Below are positions 6,597 through 53,946 of a DNA stretch of 63,289 bases, piece after piece. The translations under genes were made by a program, and so were the position numbers. The notes beneath the pieces are model-generated. The model searched no databases. It saw nothing but the letters and a program-made list of their open reading frames with translations, and had not been told where the DNA came from. The stretch's first letter is position 1, and each line of letters starts with the position of its first letter. Source of the DNA: Girardia tigrina (taxonomy: Eukaryota); contig MQRK01194420.1 in NCBI GenBank assembly GCA_001938485.1, positions 1 to 63,289 on the forward strand, given 5' to 3'.

Positions 6597-7174
6597 GAAA
6601 CAAGATCATAGACCAAGAGGCCCTAAAGAAGAAGAGCCGGAAGGATTCAATTGTCATCTATGTCGAAAGAACTACAAGACCAAAGCATAGCTCATCAGAC
6701 AATTCAAAACAGCGCACAAATTTGAAGATGAACAATTAGTTCAAATTTTTCCGATAAGAACCAATCAGTCCAGACAATCAGAAGAAGGGAATCAACTACT
6801 GAACGCGATACCAGAAGACAACGTAACTCAAGTACCAATCGTCGAGCCGAATGCTGCTTCGATAGGAGAGTTCGAAGCGAGTCCTTTAGAAACCCATCTG
6901 GACTACCGCCTTACAGATCTAACTGTGAGAGTAACCTTCAGATGCCCGTTTCGCGGATGTGTAAAGTCCACGTATACAGCCAAAGGGATGCAGAATCATG
7001 GGACTACTATCCATGACTGGTCGTTTCTGACTGAATTGCCAAAGCGTGCGCGGAAGCGAAAGGCTGACGTCCCTGTAGGAGGCCTATCGGGGAGCTTATA
7101 GACTAATTTGGTTTGGGTGGACTATCTAAAGAGCCTATAGGCTTAATACCATTCTTGAAAGAGATGACAGGCCC
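6597..7174 (+). mobile_element. 3' end of a LINE encoding two C-terminal C2H2 zinc fingers (RTE-like), structured tail-less 3' end
   Basis: Frame reads FNCHLCRKNYKTKA*LIRQFKTAH ... FRCPFRGCVKSTYTAKGMQNHGTTIH...GGLSGSL* (stop 7099-7101); homologous to 32389-32857; both copies end in GGCCC. Confidence 0.7.
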
Positions 7175-8028
7175 AAAATAAATTTATTAAAGAAATTTAT
7201 TGTAACTTAAATTAGATTAAAAGACCTAAAAGATCGTTTTTTACAAATCTTTATCAATGAATTCTTTTGTTTAACTTCTTTTGAATAAATAACAAGAACA
7301 ATATAATATTAACTGTTGTAAGTAAAAATGCAAAGAATTTTCTAAATCCTCAAAAAAGAAAACTTTGGTAAAATTTGTCGTGAAATTTCGAAAGCATTTT
7401 AATTAGCTATTGATATTTATATTAGTATACTTCTTTTCATATTTTCAAGAATCAATCTTTTCATTATTCTCATGATCAGAAGTTTTCTGTTCCTTTTCAA
7501 GACTCAGATTTAAGTGACAATTCTGTGAATAATTTGCTAGTTATAAATATTTTATATATTATTAAAATATTTCAAATAACAAAAAAGTTTAATTAAATAA
7601 AATATTTAAATTTAAAAAATTATTATTCTTCAATCTTAACAAAGACTTTTTTGTTCGGATTGATTTTGACATGTCGAATCATTATGCCCGTTTTGTGTGT
7701 TGAATTGGATTGGCTAGACTTTGCCAGCCAATCAGAACACGTTGTGAATCAGTCTACAATCACAATTCAAATTTTGATTTTTGATTAACAAATTAGAGTC
7801 AACCTTGTTGAAAGGATTACTAAATTTAGAGTGAAATTAATTCGAAAAGTATTGTAAAATTTTGAAAGTAATTTAATTTAAACAATTGACGAAACTTTTA
7901 AGTTGTATATTTTAAAAAAAACGTTCCTACAAAATTTATTCAACTGATTTTGTGTTCGTTTGATAGATTGTACAAATTTTTAATTTAATATAGAACTGTT
8001 AGAAGGTTTTGAAATTATATTTTATTTC

Positions 8029-8592
8029 TGTGAGGAATATTTTTGAATGTTGTTTATTGTGTGTTGTTTTAGGATTGTGTTTCTCCCACCCAGATGGAAG
8101 ATTGATATTTTAAATATTTTTAAACGTCGGGTTGTTTAATCAATTATTAAAATTTAAATAATCACTTTAAAATTAAACTANNNNNNNNNNNNNNNNNNNN
8201 NNNNNNNNNNNNNNNNNNNNNNNNNNNNNNTTTTTAAACGTCGGGTTGTTTAATCAATTATTAAAATTTAAATAATCACTTTAAAATTAAACTAATATTT
8301 CATAAATAATATTTTAATAATATTTTCTTAAAATAAATAAAAATTATTTTTAAATTTAAAGTATAAATTATTTTTTCTAATAATTAAACTATAATTTAAA
8401 GTATAAATTATTTTTGTAATAATTAAATTGTAATTTAAATTTGTTTGAATAATAAGACGTTAAAGAATATTATTAAAGATTATCAATTAAGAACGATGAC
8501 GAGCTACGCAAATTTTACGGAGAATTGTTCTAGTGACAATTCAAATTGTGATATAAATAAATGTAAAGGAAACCCAATTAATGTTCTTAATA
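8029..8592 (+). mobile_element. Solo LTR, TG...TA termini, 5-bp TSD ATTTC
   Basis: tgtgaggaatat...gttcttaata flanked by atttc (8024-8028 and 8593-8597); spans an N gap. Confidence 0.9.
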
Positions 8593-16460: not shown

Positions 16461-17239
16461 TATTTAAATATAATATGTATTCAATTTTTGTTTAAGTGTA
16501 ATTAAATTTTAGGGTCAGATTTCTTACATCAAAAGAAGAAAAAAGTTTTTTAAGATATGAATGAAAGATGAGTGACTAACACCATAGAATATTAATCTAG
16601 AAAGATTTGCTCGTACTTATTAACAAGAAATATATGCTTTACATACTGTTAAAATATTATAGAACTGCTTTCTAAAAAGTAAGAGTTTATTATTATTTGC
16701 TACGATATGATTAAAATCGAACAAAACAAAATAATTAAAAATCGTGCTTTAAATTAAAACAAAAAATAAGAAAAGTCAAACTCGAACATATTTACAGTCC
16801 TAAATATTTTAGACAAAGAGTAATAAAAATAATACAAGAAATTAGAAGAACATTGAATGAATGAACAAAAATCTGCAATTTGAAATAGCATACAAATAAA
16901 TATTTAAAAAACTAGATCATAATATTGTTTAAAAAATTCCGTAGAAATATTGAAAAAATTAATAATTATCTTCCTATTTTAATAATTTATGTGTAAATAA
17001 TTAAGGGAGTTTATAATCAAGAAAGAAGTTAAAAATAAAATAGTCGGAAAATAATCAAAATAAAATACATTTCAAAAAATAGCTAAGTATTATAAAAAAT
17101 ATATTTAAAAAAATGCGGTGCATGGCTTTTGGACGCTGGAACGTTTGGACGCTAGGATGTTTGGATGTGAATATTATATTATTATTATCAGAAGCTGATA
17201 TTTTAATTAAAAATTATTTAATTAATTATTAATTAGTTA

Positions 17240-17810
17240 TAAGATAGAGTGAGTGGATCTCTATCTTCCATAAACCAAATAAATTAATAAACACAAAATA
17301 ATCTGAAAAAATTTATTGTTTAGAATGATCAAGATAAGATTGTTTAGAGATTGTTGGTACTAGTGATTGAAATAAATAGATTGTTTTCCGGAGTCCCATA
17401 TCAGTAATAAGTATATTTCTGTACCAGTAAAAATGTGTTAACTGAAATTATCAACATGAGATTTGCTGAACAAATGTTGATTCCATGTTTAGACCGCTAC
17501 TAAACATTCATCGGGTGAAACTCACTATGCGAGTGGTTTAGGTGTCGGTAGTTTGATGGAAATTCGTCGGCGTGAGTGCCATGTGAGACGAATTTTCAGT
17601 ACCGACTAAACCTGAAAACCCGATAAATGAGTAGTGATCCGGTTGGATGCGTCGCAGCTAATGTTATGGAAATCGATTTGTTGATTTTCTCCACGTGATA
17701 AAATTCTGCTGACATTGACTGGTACCATATACTTACGTACTAGTTTGGGACGGTAGAAATCTATTATGTGATCGCATTGTGATACATGTAACAACAAATA
17801 TAAACATAAC
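17240..17810 (+). ncRNA. Candidate structured RNA module, unidentified
   Basis: Nested stems 17510-17516/17618-17624, 17544-17550/17600-17606, 17559-17568/17587-17596 and 17717-17725/17737-17745; G-U pairs favour the + strand. Confidence 0.45.
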
Positions 17811-18276
17811 ATTGTCGTGCTTCAAACAAAACATACTCACTAGTTACAGGAAATGAAAGACTGATTAATAAAATCAAATTCTAGATAAAAGTTACACACA
17901 AAAATGCAAATTATCGGTATTACAGTTAAAAAATAATCATAATAAACCATGGCTTATGATATTTGGGAGGTAGACAAACGATACATTGATAGTTATGGTA
18001 TAACTGGACGTCACCACAATGTATTCCGATGACAGAAATGCCAAGATAAATTAGAATTCCTTCTTTGTATTTGACGAGTTCTGGCGGATTGTGTCCAGTT
18101 ATGCGAACCAATTTCATCCAATACAGCACTAATGCAATCCGAATCTGAGAATCTTCAACATTGTATTTCGAACAAAAAACATATCGTCTCCAATGAGGTA
18201 TATTTGAATTTCAAGAAATTACCTCCGCCAATTGATAGAAATATTAAATAATCAATTATAAAAAATTGATTAATTA

Positions 18277-18318
<42 letters not shown>

Positions 18319-18368
18319 NNNNNNNNNNNNNNNNNNNNNNNNNNNNNNNNNNNNNNNNNNNNNNNNNN

Positions 18369-21342: not shown

Positions 21343-22466
21343 CGTGGTGCGCTCAAAAAGTAGTGAGCCTAACATAGAAATAATATTTTGTTTCCAATGA
21401 ATTTTTTTTCTTAACAAGTAAGTTATTAAGGTAATATTTGTGATATTTGTTTTAATCTATTATTTGTGTTTAGATTAGAGAGCGCATAAATTCAAAAGAG
21501 TCATTGGAAAACCTAGGCCATGCAGGTAGGCCACGTGAAATTGGTGAAGATATAGCGAAAAAACTCAAGAAAATCGTGCAGTTTGAGTGACGAATTACCA
21601 CCAGAGAACTGACAATGCAATTAAGTGCCAGCACAGGTACCATACAATCACTGCTTGCGGAAACTGGAATTAGTAAATTGTGTTCACACTACGTGCCACG
21701 GTTTTTAACAGCAGACATGAAGGATCGACGCTTGATGTGTTGCCAGGAAAACTTAAACCTCTATGAAGGTATTGGAGACCGCTTCTTACAGAATATTATG
21801 ACAATGGTTGAAACACCATCTGCGCTTTATGTCTCAAAATCAAGACGTGAGTCTCAAGAATGGAAGCTGCCAAGGGATGGGTGTTCGAAGAAGATGCGAT
21901 CATCAACCTCTCAGAAAAAAGCTCTCATGCTCACCACCGTTTCGGATGCAAATGGAATGATTGCTGATTTTGCGGAAGCTGCTGTTCGTATCAACAGTGA
22001 ATACTACTCCCGGCTCGTGCTACAGGCCAGAAAGCTGAGAAAGAAGAGCAGAGTTTGTGAGTTATATTATTTGCATGACAATGCACCCATCCATACAAGT
22101 GGGTTGTCAATGTCATCAATTGATGGTTGTGGCCTCATCCTGCTCTCACACCCTCCATACAGCCCGGATCTGGCGCCATCCGATTATCATCTCTTCAATC
22201 ACCTCAAGCGAGCTCTCAGGGGTCAATATTTTGCTACGAAAGAAGACTTGAAGGACGTAGTATGAAATTTCTTGGCTCAACAGCCACCGAAATTCTTCGA
22301 AAAAGCCTTTCAGGACCTTGTTGTGAGCTGGAAAAAATGTGTTGGTGTGAATGGAGATTTCTTTGAGAAATGATACCTTTATAACTTGATTGTTATGAAA
22401 AATAAATTTCATTGGAATCGGATTATTATTTTTACGTTAGGTTCACTACTTATTGAGCGCACCACG
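21343..22466 (+). mobile_element. Mariner (DD34D) element, defective
   Basis: TIRs cgtggtgcgctcaa(a/t)aagtagtga, TA TSDs; ORF 21615-22265 with HDNAPIH-34-D (YSPDLAPSDYHLF); first catalytic Asp lost; internal deletion. Confidence 0.95.
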
Positions 22467-25192: not shown

Positions 25193-26518
25193 TTGGGTTG
25201 TTGCATAAGTTCCAGCCGTTTTTTAAACATTTATTTTCAAAGAAATCAAAGAATTTTAACAACCAAAATAATGACTCAGTTAATTTATTTAATGAAATCA
25301 TAAAATTTTAACACTTCAATCAATTATGTACTCTCCTTCATTTTTCAATACTTCTTCCCATCTTTCCACCAGTTTGTTGATTCCATTTCGCCAGAAATCC
25401 TTAGGTCGAGTCTCGAAGAAGTTGTTGAGTCTGATCAAGATGATCCTGATTTTCGAAGCTAAGACCCCTCATTTCATTTGAAAGGCAGCGGAAGAGATGG
25501 TAATCCGTCGGGGCGAGGTCTGGGGAATAGGGAGGATGTTGTAGGACCTCCCAACCGAGCTCTTGGAGTGCCATCTTGACAGTTTTGCGGTGTGTGGTCG
25601 AACATTGTCATGGAGGAGGATCACCTGGCCTTGTCGATCTGGTCTTTTTTGTTGAATTGCATCCTTGACGCGATGCAATTGGGCTTTATAGAGATTCTTT
25701 TCTACTGTCATGTTCTTTCCAAGCATTTCCCAGTAGATTAGACATTCCCAATCCCACAATACACAAATCATTGTCTTCATCGGGTATAGGTCTTTCTTGA
25801 TCCTGGGTTTAGGCTTCTCTCCAGGACTCACCCACTTTTTCCTTTGCTTCATATTCACATAGAGACACCATTTCTCGTCTCCAATGACGATTCTGTATAA
25901 GAAACGTTGCCTGTGACCATGGGTTCCTTGGTGTCGAGCGAGAATTTGAGCAGCAATGAAAAGCCGCTTATCCTTCTATTTTTGGGTGAGTTCGTGCGGG
26001 ATCCAAGCTCCAAGTTTTTGAGTGAAACTCAACAACTGAAGATTGCGTGAAATTGTTGCAAAATCAAAATTCATCTTTTCGGCCAATTCTCTGCATGTCT
26101 GGCGGCCATCTTCCTTCAAAAGATCCCCGAGTTGGTCCTCGTCCATCTCGTCTGGTCTTCCGGAACGAGGAGCGTTGTTGAGGTCGAAATTATCGTGTTT
26201 GAACCTGGAAAACCAATTCCGAGCAGTTCACTGAGCTATAGTGTCCTTTCCATATACGGCAAAAATATCTCTGGTAGCTTCACTCGCTTTTTGACCTCGA
26301 TTAAAAGTTAAAAGAAGGAGGTGTCAAAAATTCGATTTTTTGTCGACTTGACAATCCATTTGACGGTTCTAAAAAAGACAAAAAAATAATATAGGCACTT
26401 TAATCTTGTATATCATATCACGAGCTTTCTAATGGTATATAACACTTCGCTAAACATCAAAAAGTCTTTGTAGAACAAATAGTTTCATGTAACGGCGGGA
26501 ACTTATGCAACAACCCAA
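25193..26518 (-). mobile_element. Full-length mariner, defective
   Basis: TIR ttgggttgttgcataagttcc, TA TSDs; frameshifted transposase at about 25316-26359 (WIPHEL, GDEKW, HDNVRPH, YSPDLAP). Confidence 0.95.
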
Positions 26519-26800: not shown

Positions 26801-28485
26801 TGTGAGGAATATTTTCAGAAGTTCTTTATTGTATAACATACAATGTAACTTTATTTTCTTTTTGTTGAATAAATATCCAAAACCGATGGATTGAAGTTAT
26901 TTTTTATGAAATGGTAAAAATGTATTTTTTTGTGATTTTTTAGTGACCCATAAGGTTTGTCCAAATGCTCCTAAATACCGATAAAAGTTGTTACTCAACA
27001 TATGTTGTTTATTATTAACGATCACGATTACATAAGACATTAAGTAGGACCTAATATTATATATTGTGTAATACACCAAACAGTAGACATGTAAATTTCG
27101 TCATACTAAATCTCCCCCTTTCTCTATAACATTGATTAATCTTTCAGGTATCGAAAAAGCCAAATTTTGTAAGGTATTTAAATCAATTCCACTCCAAATC
27201 TTTAAAATACTATTTTTAAGATCAGATTTTGATATATATTGCTTGTTTGCTGCGTATAAACGACTAACAATGAGGCCCATACATTTTCCATTGGATATAA
27301 ATCTGGAGACTTTGCTGCCCAATCCATAATGTCGATGTTATTTCTATTCAAAAATTCTTTGGTTTTAATTGCGCGATGAGGTGGCGCATTATCATGTTGA
27401 TATAAGAAGTCTTCATTGGCACGTGTAATTAAAGGTACAATATGTTCCCAGAGGAGTTCTATGTATCGCGCTGAATTTAGAGTTCCTTCAATAACATCTA
27501 TCATTTTCTCCCCAGTGCCTGTAAAAGCAGCCCAAATCATCAAACCACCACCAGCACTATGTCGTCGCATTCTTGTATATTCCCCAGACTGCTTTCTATG
27601 TGTATTCATCCATCTTTTAGAAAGACCATCTGATCCATCTATAGAAAATTTCTTTTCATCCGACCATATAATATTAAGCCAATTTGGAGGGTTCAAAAGA
27701 AGATTTTTACATATAGCCACCCGGTTCTTTTTGTGTAATTTTGTTAAGTATATTTTCGGATTAATATATGAATATTCAACATCTTCATTGTCATTCAAAA
27801 TTCGATGAACATGGCTCTTACTAATAGAAATACCAACGCTATTAGTCATTGAAGATGCAATTTTTCGGCAACTTTTAAAATCTGAATCTTTAGATGTAGT
27901 GGACATGTCGATAATTGTTCGTCGACTTCTCTCCGAGATTCTTCTAGGTCGTCCAGTTGGTTTTTTTCTATCATAATTATCCGGATTGTGAAGAAATCTG
28001 AATATCGTCTTTCGACAGACAGATTTTTGAAAACGTTCATTAAATAATATGGTTATTTCAGTGATGGAAGTTCTAGACTTCTCGAATTCCTCATATTTTA
28101 ATGTTAAAAACATTTTTTTTTCTTCCTGGAACTTGTTTTATCGATTCATTCTAAAATGGACAAATCTTAAGAGACATAGCTAAAAAATTAAAACTTACTT
28201 CAAATACCAATAATTAAAATAATTTTCAAATATGTGCTTTAAAAGAATATATTTAAACAAATGAAAAGTGATACAAATAATAATTTCTTGACAGATATTA
28301 TTTTACTTTGAAATATTGAAAAATATTAAAGTGGACAAACCTTTAGGGACGGACTATATGTTGTTTTTAGGATTGTGTCTCTCCCACTCAGGTGATTGAT
28401 TGATTATTTTTTAATTATTTTGTAATTTAAATTGTGAATTAAATGGTAATTTAGATTTTTTCGAATAATTAGAGATTAAGAAATA
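26801..28485 (+). mobile_element. LTR fragment interrupted by Tc1
   Basis: tgtgaggaatat at 26801; LTR sequence resumes at about 28357 (tgttgtttttaggattgtgtctctcccactcag). Confidence 0.75.
26834..28356 (-). mobile_element. Tc1-like (DD34E) transposon
   Basis: ORF 27202-28113 with WSDEKKF and QHDNAPPH-34-E (SPDLYPMENVW); terminal motif aaggtttgtcca at about 26952 and inverted at about 28332-28344; inserted at TA. Confidence 0.92.
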
Positions 28486-39259: not shown

Positions 39260-40050
39260 GCTTATTCTTATCAAAATATTTTCCATCGTTAATTATGACT
39301 TTCGACCATCTTTCAGGCAAATTATGAATTCCATCGAAAAAAAAGTTTTGGTCTTTTGATGCGATCCATTGTTTTAGCCATTTTTTTATATGTTACTGGT
39401 TTCTGAAGTGCTGGTCCCGAAGAGCGCTCTGCATTGATCGGAACAGATGATAATCTGATGGGGCACAATCTGGTAAATAGGCAGCACGCGGTAGAATTTC
39501 CCATTTAAGTGCTTCCAACGTGTTTTCTACTTGTTTCGCGACATGTGGCCGAGCATTTTCATGGAGCAAAATCACTGTGTGCTGTTTGTTAGATGGAATA
39601 GTACGTTTTTCCTTCAATGCATCGTTCAATTTCATTAACTGTTGTTGGTAACGTTCTGCATTAACAGTTTCATTCGAATTCAGCAGCTCATAGTACAGTA
39701 TACCTTTCTGATCCCACCAAATGCACAACATAACCTTGCTTCCATGAATGTTTCTTTTTACTGTTGACGTGGACGGTTCGCCGGGATGAACCCACGATTT
39801 CTTGCTTTTAGAGTTAACATAATAAATCCATTTTTCATCTCCAGTCACCATAATATGCAAAAACGACCATCTTCGTTGTCTTGTAAGCAATGAATTGAAT
39901 ATCAGTAATCGACTTTCAATGTTGGCTTGATTCAATTCATGTGGTATCCATTTTCCTTCTTTTTGAATCATTTTCATAGCATGTAGACGTTTACTTATGG
40001 CTGCTTGAATAACATTTAACTGTTTTGCAAGCTCTGGGATCTTATTATTT
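39260..40050 (-). mobile_element. Truncated mariner transposase
   Basis: ORF 39393-40073: WIPHEL, VTGDEKW, LLHENARPH, YLPDCAPSDYHLF. Confidence 0.9.
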
Positions 40051-40424
40051 CTACTGCGCACCTCTACTACCACCGTCCGGTCTTCGAGAAAACTTCATGA
40101 GTAGGCGGAACAATATTTATTGTTAATATTATTCTTATATTCATCATTATCAATAAAGTGTTAGTTAGATCATTCTACAATAGTTTACAATAAATCGTCC
40201 AACTTTTTTCATATGTATTCAGATTCTTCATAATCACACAAAAAGACCGATTATATTAAATGACTTATAAAGAATTACTATAAATAAATGACTGATTATA
40301 TTACATTCACTTTCAACTATGAAAGCCACATTTAAATGTAACTTAAATTGATGTTACAAACACAACTAAAAATTTGTATTTTCTTTCTATTTAAAAATTG
40401 TAATTGCGTTAAATTGGTTTTTTT

Positions 40425-48327: not shown

Positions 48328-49135
48328 CTGTATTCTACAAGGCAACCGCTGACCGATATCTCGACTGCAGCTACCACATGTGGTCAATATACTTTCGAGG
48401 TAACAGAACTCGCCCAACCCATTCTATGAATTTGTCACCACACAACACTTGTGATATTCAAAGTTCCCGAGTCATCAGTTAGGCACATGACTTTAGTCTT
48501 AGATGCACTAATAGTCAACCCGAATTCTGAAAATATGCTTCGAAATATATTCAATTTTTGACAATCACGATCAATATCAGAGTCTAGGATTCATAGCTCA
48601 TCCGCATAAGCAAATCTATTGACTTGATATTCGTCAGCATGCTCGTCGATCAGGGTAATTCATCCCCCGAATTCTTTCAGTATCGCCGTTTTGATAACTT
48701 CATCGAAGACCAAGTTAAAAAGACAAGGTCCCATCACACATCCCTGTCTGACACATCTTTCCGTGAGAAACTCACAATCCCCTATAGAGGCATGGATTTC
48801 CTCGATCAGGTAGAGAATCTTGTCGGCCAAGCCGAATCTTTTCAGGCAGTCCCACAGAACTTCACATGGGACACTATCGAATGCCTTTTCCAAATCAATG
48901 AATATCACAAATACCTTCTGATACTTATATCGAACTTCTTTCTGTATCCAACTGAGTATATTTATAGCTTGCATAGAACCTCTTTTCGGCCGAAAACCAA
49001 ACTGCCAAGGGTCTAACCTTTCTTTCATCAACGGCGCAATTCTATTTACAATTATTCGTGCAAAAACTTTGCCGGTGACTTCCAAGAGGATCCCTCTATA
49101 ATTATTCGGATCAGACCTTGCACCCTTTTACTCTG
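48328..49135 (-). pseudogene. RTE-like LINE reverse transcriptase fragment
   Basis: KGARSDPNNYRGI.LLEVTGKVFARI, QFGFRPKRGS, FIDLEKAFDSV, VRQGCVMGPCLFN, AYAD, FCYLESIL. Confidence 0.9.
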
Positions 49136-53021: not shown

Positions 53022-53524
53022 ACTGATTATGTTCTTTTTTATTGCTTTTATATAAGAAATGAATGATTATACAATCACTAACGTAAGTTTAATCGAAAAC
53101 TCTTAACAAATTAGTTGAGAGTGCTGTTTGAACATTGATTCTTGGAGTACATGATCTTATCAACAATGCTTCACATTACACTCTCTCCCAATAATTTTTA
53201 AAATGCTTGCACAAAATCTTAAAATCATTTATGCTCATATTACATTTACACGTTTTTTTATGCTCAGCAATATTACTCTTTCCCCATTTTTGACTGTGTT
53301 CTTGGACTCGTTTGTAGAGATGACGGGCAGTCTCTCCGATGTATGTGGCATTGCACCCATTACATATATATTGATAAACAATGTCCGAACACAATCCTAA
53401 AGGAGTATGTGATTTATTGCAATATATATTCTCAACTTTAAATGATTGAGAGATAATTTTTAAATTTAAAATGTTATCTGTTGATTTCAAGATCGAATTC
53501 TTGAGGTGTTTAAAACCCTCGGAG

Positions 53525-53946
53525 CAGGCGCGTAGCAAGGGGGAGATGATTGGCTGGATTTCCACCCAATGATAAAATGCCCTAAAAATTGTTTAAAAAA
53601 ATTATTACGAAAAACAAAACTTAGAGGAACGGGACCTCTCGTTTTCCCCAAATTAAAATCCAATTGGGCGTTCCCATTTTAATCCACGTTTTCGGCCCTA
53701 CTAGCAAGGCTAAAAACAAAGATTAATATAGAAACCCTTGATTGGATTTTAATCGGGGAGAAAAAAGGAGGTCCGAGGAACGTTTAAGGAGCTTAAGGAT
53801 CGTTTAAGTTTAGAGGGTTAAAATCGGGAGACACCCCCACCCCTGAAAAAATTAAAACCTAATTAGCCACCCCAATTATATTTAAGATTGCTAGATCTTT
53901 CAGGAATTTTTTTCCACCCCCCTCTGCAATCCTGGCTACGCCGCTG
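53525..53946. mobile_element. hAT-type MITE with 8-bp TSD CCTCGGAG
   Basis: TSD at 53517-53524 and 53947-53954; imperfect TIR cag(gc/cg)gcgtagc(a/c)agg. Confidence 0.9.

Follow-up and report, generated by a model that had tools for sequence, protein, structure and literature searches.

The window analysed here, a stretch of 63,289 nucleotides of Girardia tigrina DNA (contig MQRK01194420.1), holds a group of nested inverted repeats at positions 17480-17810 that an earlier note, made from the letters alone, had read as one compact RNA domain with several helices and two UGAAA motifs. We asked whether such an RNA exists, to what it belongs and on which strand it would be read. The window has about 25% G+C and carries broken frames of the Tc1/mariner transposase, reverse transcriptase and GIY-YIG types, and is therefore repeat-rich eukaryotic DNA. 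Results showed that the stretch is part of the repeated LTR of a TRIM-like element, not a stand-alone RNA or gene, and that this LTR, which belongs to an oversized element of that kind, contains a real covarying RNA-type fold, hereafter called the rod (Table 1).

Table 1. Features of the window, with positions counted from its first letter and the strand on which each feature is read.
Feature	Position	Strand	Basis or detail
Family A solo LTR, ~1.1 kb, from a non-autonomous LTR retrotransposon	17246..18318	-	copies, shared extent, sister-copy ends
AATAAA, putative poly(A) signal	17312..17317	-	sequence; U/GU-rich stretch after AATAAA
TA-rich LTR start region, putative U3/promoter side	18280..18318	-	complete copies have a TA tract immediately within the LTR start
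Three-way-junction rod	17499..17635	-	z -7.26, conservation peak, covariation
Closing stem P1a/P1	17505..17629	-	17505-17508 with 17626-17629; 17510-17516 with 17618-17624
Side hairpin P2	17521..17533	-	5 bp, 3-nt loop
Long arm	17535..17612	-	P3 17535-17540/17607-17612; P4 17544-17550/17600-17606
Long arm, distal part		-	P5 17558-17568/17587-17597; apical P6 17569-17571/17578-17580
First TGAAA (UUUCA in sense RNA), junction strand	17516..17520	+	not conserved
Second TGAAA (UUUCA in sense RNA), junction strand	17613..17617	+	not conserved
Two further hairpins (17668-17689, 17692-17770)	17645..17790	+	family-A-only plus-strand fold
Broken Tc1/mariner, RT and GIY-YIG frames	21591-22262, 25472-25975, 27205-28137, 39396-40094, 48663-49127, 53179-53592		

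A search of the 1.43-Gb genome returned 40 scored LTR copies with 94-98% identity, and a 20-mer taken from the rod has at least 542 exact genomic copies, the control having 0. The LTR interval of Table 1 is the extent common to the copies; in the window's own copy the U5 end is ~15 nt short, and the U3 end is missing or masked by the N run at 18319-18368. Complete copies are ~1.0-1.3 kb long with TG...CA ends. Among the eight sister copies with both ends intact, six are flanked by a perfect 5-bp target-site duplication (TSD), one matches in 4 of 5 letters and one is mismatched; these eight TSD-tested LTRs measure 1,022-1,327 bp, and that of locus L028 measures at least 1,163 bp. In L006, L010 and L020 the LTR is lengthened by ~700 bp of additional sequence, placed between window positions 17924 and 18069, and L002/L288 and L004 (also the left ends of L001 and L003) are without the last ~12-16 nt of the U5 end. 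The target duplications of L004 (~65 bp) and L002 (~95 bp) are not of 5 bp, as if one end alone had integrated normally.

The primer site adjoins the left end of the LTR on the minus strand, as seen in 35 genomic matches to the LTR end joined with this site, while a primer site on the plus side of the LTR gave 0 matches; a polypurine-tract flank is common to 5 of 30 LTR right ends. Because of the positions of primer site and polypurine tract, the element sense is the window's minus strand. In L095 the primer site is 18 nt long and complementary to a genomic tRNA-Leu(CAG) (tRNA match in L172). At 9 of the 30 loci with LTR end and primer site the next LTR start is reached 145-164 nt further on, and L028 consists of a rod-bearing LTR, 160 bp and a second rod-bearing LTR, with both outer ends cut by contig ends. 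This LTR-160 bp-LTR unit measures ~2.3-2.4 kb and its interior is short and non-coding; among the retrieved loci, no complete two-LTR copy with TSD was seen. In element sense the AATAAA lies ~190 nt downstream of the rod; in L015, which is a complete copy, 85 nt separate it from the LTR end. We also observed an LTR with 8-18 nt of primer site joined directly to foreign DNA (L095, L101-L103, L091, L092, L097, L107, L111, L115); these junctions resemble integrated plus-strand strong-stop products.

The element is likely of the Ty3/Gypsy type, a label that rests on the ends, the primer, the tract and weak Gag/protease matches, because no RT-bearing helper was found. With ta-TRIM of taeniid cestodes, as described in passages of PMC4558846, it shares two LTRs, a short non-coding interior, a primer site and a polypurine tract, as well as a tRNA-Leu primer, many solo LTRs with TSDs, tandem units and the need for a helper. 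On the contrary, the TRIM limit of 1,000 bp given in a part of PMC10886601 is exceeded here by the ~1.1-kb LTR and by the whole unit, the TSDs of ta-TRIM are mostly of 4 bp and not 5 bp, and the same passages of PMC4558846 describe no ~140-nt covarying LTR fold such as the one present here.

All the inverted-repeat arms listed in the earlier note were recovered, that is ATCGGGT (17510) with ACCCGAT (17618), GGTTTAG (17535) with CTAAACC (17606), GTCGGTA (17544) with TACCGAC (17600) and the arm pair GAAATTCGTC (17559) with GACGAATTTT (17587). The arms nest as proposed, but the second and third helices share C17606 and cannot both be of 7 bp; likewise, the junction is indeed multi-helix, but the 5-bp hairpin P2 had been overlooked and makes it three-way. 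The proposal of a compact structure is supported, since the fold lies far below its shuffles and its pairing is under selection. The interval 17480-17810 has a folding z of -6.28 on plus and -5.18 on minus (0 of 100 shuffles as good), and the rod alone -7.26 on minus and -5.76 on plus (0 of 200 shuffles as good). As for the two more long hairpins described after the rod, 17645-17810 does fold on the plus strand (z -3.14, versus +0.11 on minus), but this plus-only fold is lost in the two related LTR families, B and C, presented below (mean z on plus -0.2 and +0.1), where the short hairpin is partly retained. The last ~130 nt of the interval are thus not conserved. The rod itself is a G+C-richer conserved island found in some LTR families only; our model R1 gives the window's rod 191 bits, a match that is by construction. 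In L256, whose LTR is without a rod, LTR positions 501-650 have a sense-strand fold of their own near the LTR end (z about -5.8); among seven rod-less LTRs, one had a segment with z -5.8 and the others none better than -2.9 (15 shuffles each).

We then compared the rod across LTR families. Searches with diverged LTRs gave three families, A, B and C, with 51, 22 and 17 rods; 8 of 98 rod rows had been dropped as truncated or nested (L020, L042, L063, L115, L128, L140, L145, L156), the alignment A1 holds 65 of the remaining 90, and the identity profile and the z of the downstream hairpins used 81. Between-family identity is 75-82%. Compared with the window, B and C reach their highest identity, 0.69-0.88, over 17480-17660 and have 0.3-0.6 over most of the rest, and the clades B+C and C were recovered from flanking sequence alone with support 1.0 and 0.99. 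Double-sided changes between families affect 5 of 43 pairs (17510/17624, 17523/17531, 17537/17610, 17545/17605 and 17568/17587; null mean 0.58, p=1.5e-4); at 17510/17624, for example, family A has A-T where B and C have mostly G-C. Pairing is broken in 3 family states (17549/17601 in both B and C, 17569/17580 in C), against a null mean of 16.3. In the 65-row alignment 90.2% of cells pair, versus 29-44% in slid controls, and 103 cells have double changes, versus 18-32 in controls (shuffles 32), while the count of pairs with any double change was not above shuffles (38/500). Because there are only three families, the double changes amount to about five events. Within B and C, paired sites have decayed about as fast as unpaired ones (0.09-0.10 versus 0.07-0.08), which fits dead copies of once-selected masters. 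These data support that the pairing of the rod has been kept by compensatory mutations and that a compact multi-helix structure is under selection. A by-eye check of the rod alignments revealed no covarying pseudoknot or xrRNA-type loop pairings.

T-loop motifs are UGNRA-type loops, and the reading of the two UGAAA as T-loops did not survive the comparison. TGAAA is present at 17516 and 17613, but T17516 is the closing base of the first helix, and the plus strand of the window holds 217 occurrences of the word, or 3.4 per kb. Homologues keep the pairing and lose the UGAAA positions: the first is found in 43/51 copies of A, 0/22 of B and 0/17 of C, and the second in 24/51, 1/22 and 0/17. Two of the three families thus lack the motifs for the most part, and because the element RNA is the minus strand the motifs read UUUCA in it. 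Readings as RNase P, a group II intron or another large T-loop RNA fail as well, with no Rfam match and no conservation of UGAAA.

We also asked on which strand the fold is likely to act. One P2 pair is C-G in A, U-G in B and U-A in C when read on minus, with mismatches on plus, and the neighbouring P2 pair is G-U in A and G-C in B and C on minus, with a mismatch on plus. The mean z is lower on minus in each family (minus/plus, A -7.5/-6.0, B -3.8/-2.6, C -3.6/-1.9). On the other hand, the energies from alignment folding hardly differ (-72.2 plus, -73.0 minus), the raw energy of the rod is lower on plus, and the downstream hairpins, although lost in B and C, fold on plus only. The pair polarity for minus rests on two wobble pairs, and one pair points to plus, an apical one that in family C is a wobble on plus only. 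Minus is therefore the likelier functional strand, with modest support and short of proof. Seven of 10 public runs hold a small share of LTR words (4-16%), and pieces of the LTR are covered by contigs from 7 of 8 public runs, a single one being on record as RNA and the others guessed; these contigs carry no strand, start or level and therefore provide no evidence of expression.

Rfam gave no match at gathering score over the whole window, and relaxed searches, with E up to 10 (17000-18300) or 5 (L155, L139, L028), gave weak unrelated matches only. Homologues were absent from metagenome contigs (0) and viral contigs (0), and 18 short matches elsewhere all failed model R1 (0/47 sources). Literature searches, at the level of their listings, revealed no description of such a fold, and the repeat family may already be catalogued (Repbase/Dfam).

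What could the rod do for the element? Cis-acting stems of retroviruses and retrotransposons (packaging and dimer signals, TAR, CTE/RTE) are structure-conserved parts of untranslated genomic RNA. The rod is likewise conserved in structure, but it lies wholly inside the LTR and is absent from sister families. As both pairing and loops are conserved, it fits a protein-binding signal, and we propose that it is a cis-acting signal of this kind in the element's own minus-strand RNA, a reading that we hold to be about evenly balanced between right and wrong. The LTR would be transcribed by Pol II from its TA-rich start to the AATAAA (17317-17312), which would place the rod towards the 3' end of the RNA, ~190 nt ahead of the tail; a long R would put it at the 5' end as well. 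Gag and Pol would be supplied in trans by a helper element, and the rod would raise the odds of the non-coding RNA surviving, leaving the nucleus, being packaged and being reverse-transcribed from tRNA-Leu; the signal may be of the packaging, export or stability type. Selection would have acted on the active master copies, and the scattered solo copies, the window's included, look like decaying relics. Passages of Koziol et al. (PMC4558846) suggest that TRIMs may owe their specificity to a packaging signal of which only the structure is conserved and which is difficult to detect.

In related elements that have this primer site and tract in common with the rod LTRs, the rod was found in 0 of 29 loci of ~1.7-kb single-frame elements and in 1 of 37 loci of gag-pro-only elements, where the single match is a nested insertion into a rod LTR, and many of these rod-less loci may not span whole LTRs. 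Its absence from sister elements is the chief argument against the proposed signal; the group as a whole does not need the rod, which is therefore a family-specific aid and not a core part. The 160-bp interior is also found behind rod-less LTR ends, and it could itself carry a packaging signal.

There are two other readings. One of them places the rod close to the ENEs, stability elements; here the U-rich junction strands would hold the poly(A) tail by forming a triple helix with it. ENEs (KSHV PAN, Evade) are, in the parts of PMC12501189 and PMC13541005 at hand, U-rich internal loops near 3' ends that occur in LTR elements and raise Evade mobility, and the rod, near the 3' end of its retroelement RNA, resembles them in having U-rich strands adjacent to G-C pairs. 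In sense RNA, U-rich junction strands lie on either side of a G-C-rich stem, ~190 nt upstream of the poly(A) signal, and in family A 4 U on the 5' side (37/51) and 3 U on the 3' side (40/51) stand next to G-C pairs. However, the 3' U run is not kept from one family to the next, being reduced to 2 in B (15/22) and to 0-1 free U in C, so the pattern of U runs on both strands with G-C flanks is marginal in A and lost in B and C; the loop of the rod is a three-way junction and not a two-sided internal loop, and no ENE was matched in Rfam. We consider a clamp of this type unlikely. The other reading, for which we would leave somewhat more room although it too is on the improbable side, is that the fold acts as DNA or antisense (single-stranded cDNA in reverse transcription, cruciform or antisense RNA), or that the paired changes came from template switching between the arms, with no selection. 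The lower plus-strand energy and the plus-only downstream hairpins speak for it, and three unrelated LTR elements inserted at the same stem-base site in family C copies hint at a DNA-level feature. On the contrary, bulges, loops and junction persist with no drift to a perfect palindrome, the P2 series C-G, U-G, U-A works on minus only, and the conservation peak comprises the whole 180 nt, loops included.

The hammerhead core is CUGANGA, and it is present in 0 of the 90 rods on plus and somewhere on minus in 5 of 90. This bears on the ribozyme-like role suggested earlier, according to which the rod would be a self-cleaving ribozyme and the element, by analogy, an animal LTR retrozyme travelling as circular RNA. 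The layout is retrozyme-like: the retrozymes described in passages of PMC4918200 are also non-autonomous and Ty3/Gypsy-dependent, with a structured RNA in each LTR, primer site, tract, and solo, single and tandem forms. Their LTRs, however, are of 330 bp, the reverse of the long LTR and short interior found here, and they use tRNA-Met and a hammerhead, versus tRNA-Leu and no hammerhead core. In family A the plus-strand junction is loosely hammerhead-like, with GAAA before a short hairpin and CUGA after the long arm, but the GAAA-stem motif is present in 41/51 A copies and in 0/39 of B and C, this reading falls on the antisense strand, no Rfam ribozyme appeared at E up to 10 or 5, and no covarying pseudoknots were seen by eye. 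With neither a Rfam match nor an intact hammerhead core, self-cleavage seems highly improbable. A captured piece of unrecognised host non-coding RNA, or of a Pol III promoter, is also very unlikely in our opinion. Such captures are known in TRIM LTRs, according to passages of PMC10886601, where Cassandra, Helenus and Ajax (TRIMp3) are likewise non-autonomous LTR elements with an RNA-like module in the LTR, and the presence of the rod as a G+C-richer island in only some LTR families would agree with it. Those elements differ by their tRNA/5S similarity and Pol III boxes, and Helenus and Ajax, as the same passages have it, conserve promoter boxes and not structure; here it is pairing that is conserved, and the AATAAA suggests Pol II. 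Moreover, no tRNA was predicted (ARAGORN, 0/6 loci), Rfam matched no 5S, SRP or other RNA, and no non-LTR source copy was seen in searches of the genome by sequence. The least credible proposal is an IRES or a large RNA organised by T-loops, to which we give almost no weight: the multi-helix fold is stable and a Gag-like frame follows related LTR ends in two copies (L106, L108), but UGAAA is unconserved and antisense, neither the solo LTR nor the 160-bp unit is coding or has a reading frame after the rod, and what follows the rod is a putative poly(A) signal.

The preferred reading, a protein-binding signal in cis, calls for a helper, and we looked for it among the sister elements that share the primer site and the tract. 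These contain Gag-like CHCC frames, with weak protease/DUF7041 matches below Pfam cut-offs. The protease query led to gag-pro-only elements and the query with the L106 frame to ~1.7-kb single-frame elements, and neither revealed an autonomous helper with RT and integrase tied to the LTR ends; the pol frames of L084 and L086 were set aside as helper candidates, being neighbours not joined to the LTR. The 160-bp interior seems derived from the ~1.7-kb single-frame elements (95% over 85 nt). Each interior is found behind many unrelated LTR ends, which suggests frequent LTR swapping.

The tRNA-Leu primer site, the tract and the start of the LTR are common to a large pol-less group (L198, L206, L208, L210; L241-L269; L216-L240), with interiors that are gag-protease-only (~3.5-4 kb), single-frame of ~1.7 kb, or of 160 bp; the single-frame interiors show a coiled coil, a CHCC motif and a GPY/F-like tail. 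In family C, three different LTR elements (in L140, L145 and L103/L121) have inserted independently at the equivalent of 17620-17624, the base of the closing stem, with 5-bp duplications in L140 and L145, and a fourth LTR insertion into the same pentamer was found in family A (L063), in P4 (window 17602-17606). A structure- or sequence-driven hotspot is possible. L118 carries an intron-less open frame of 418 residues (6804-8057, minus) that by eye resembles a membrane fatty-acid hydroxylase or alkylglycerol monooxygenase.

We see a slim chance that the rod represents a retroelement RNA device of a new class, which would either cleave itself through an unrecognised fold or clamp poly(A) through the three-way junction. 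If this were true, the self-cleaving version would lead to a circular-RNA "LTR retrozyme" of an animal-type genome, and the rod, as a swappable LTR module, would have let one family spread to hundreds of copies. For genome scans the locus carries a caution, as a strong fold present in hundreds of copies is part of a repeat and has to be read on the element's strand. How helper machinery chooses the RNA of protein-less LTR elements is an open point, for which the ~140-nt covarying fold offers a handle; the three families provide natural variants of it and the sister families without a rod provide controls, and the question of the signal is therefore directly testable.
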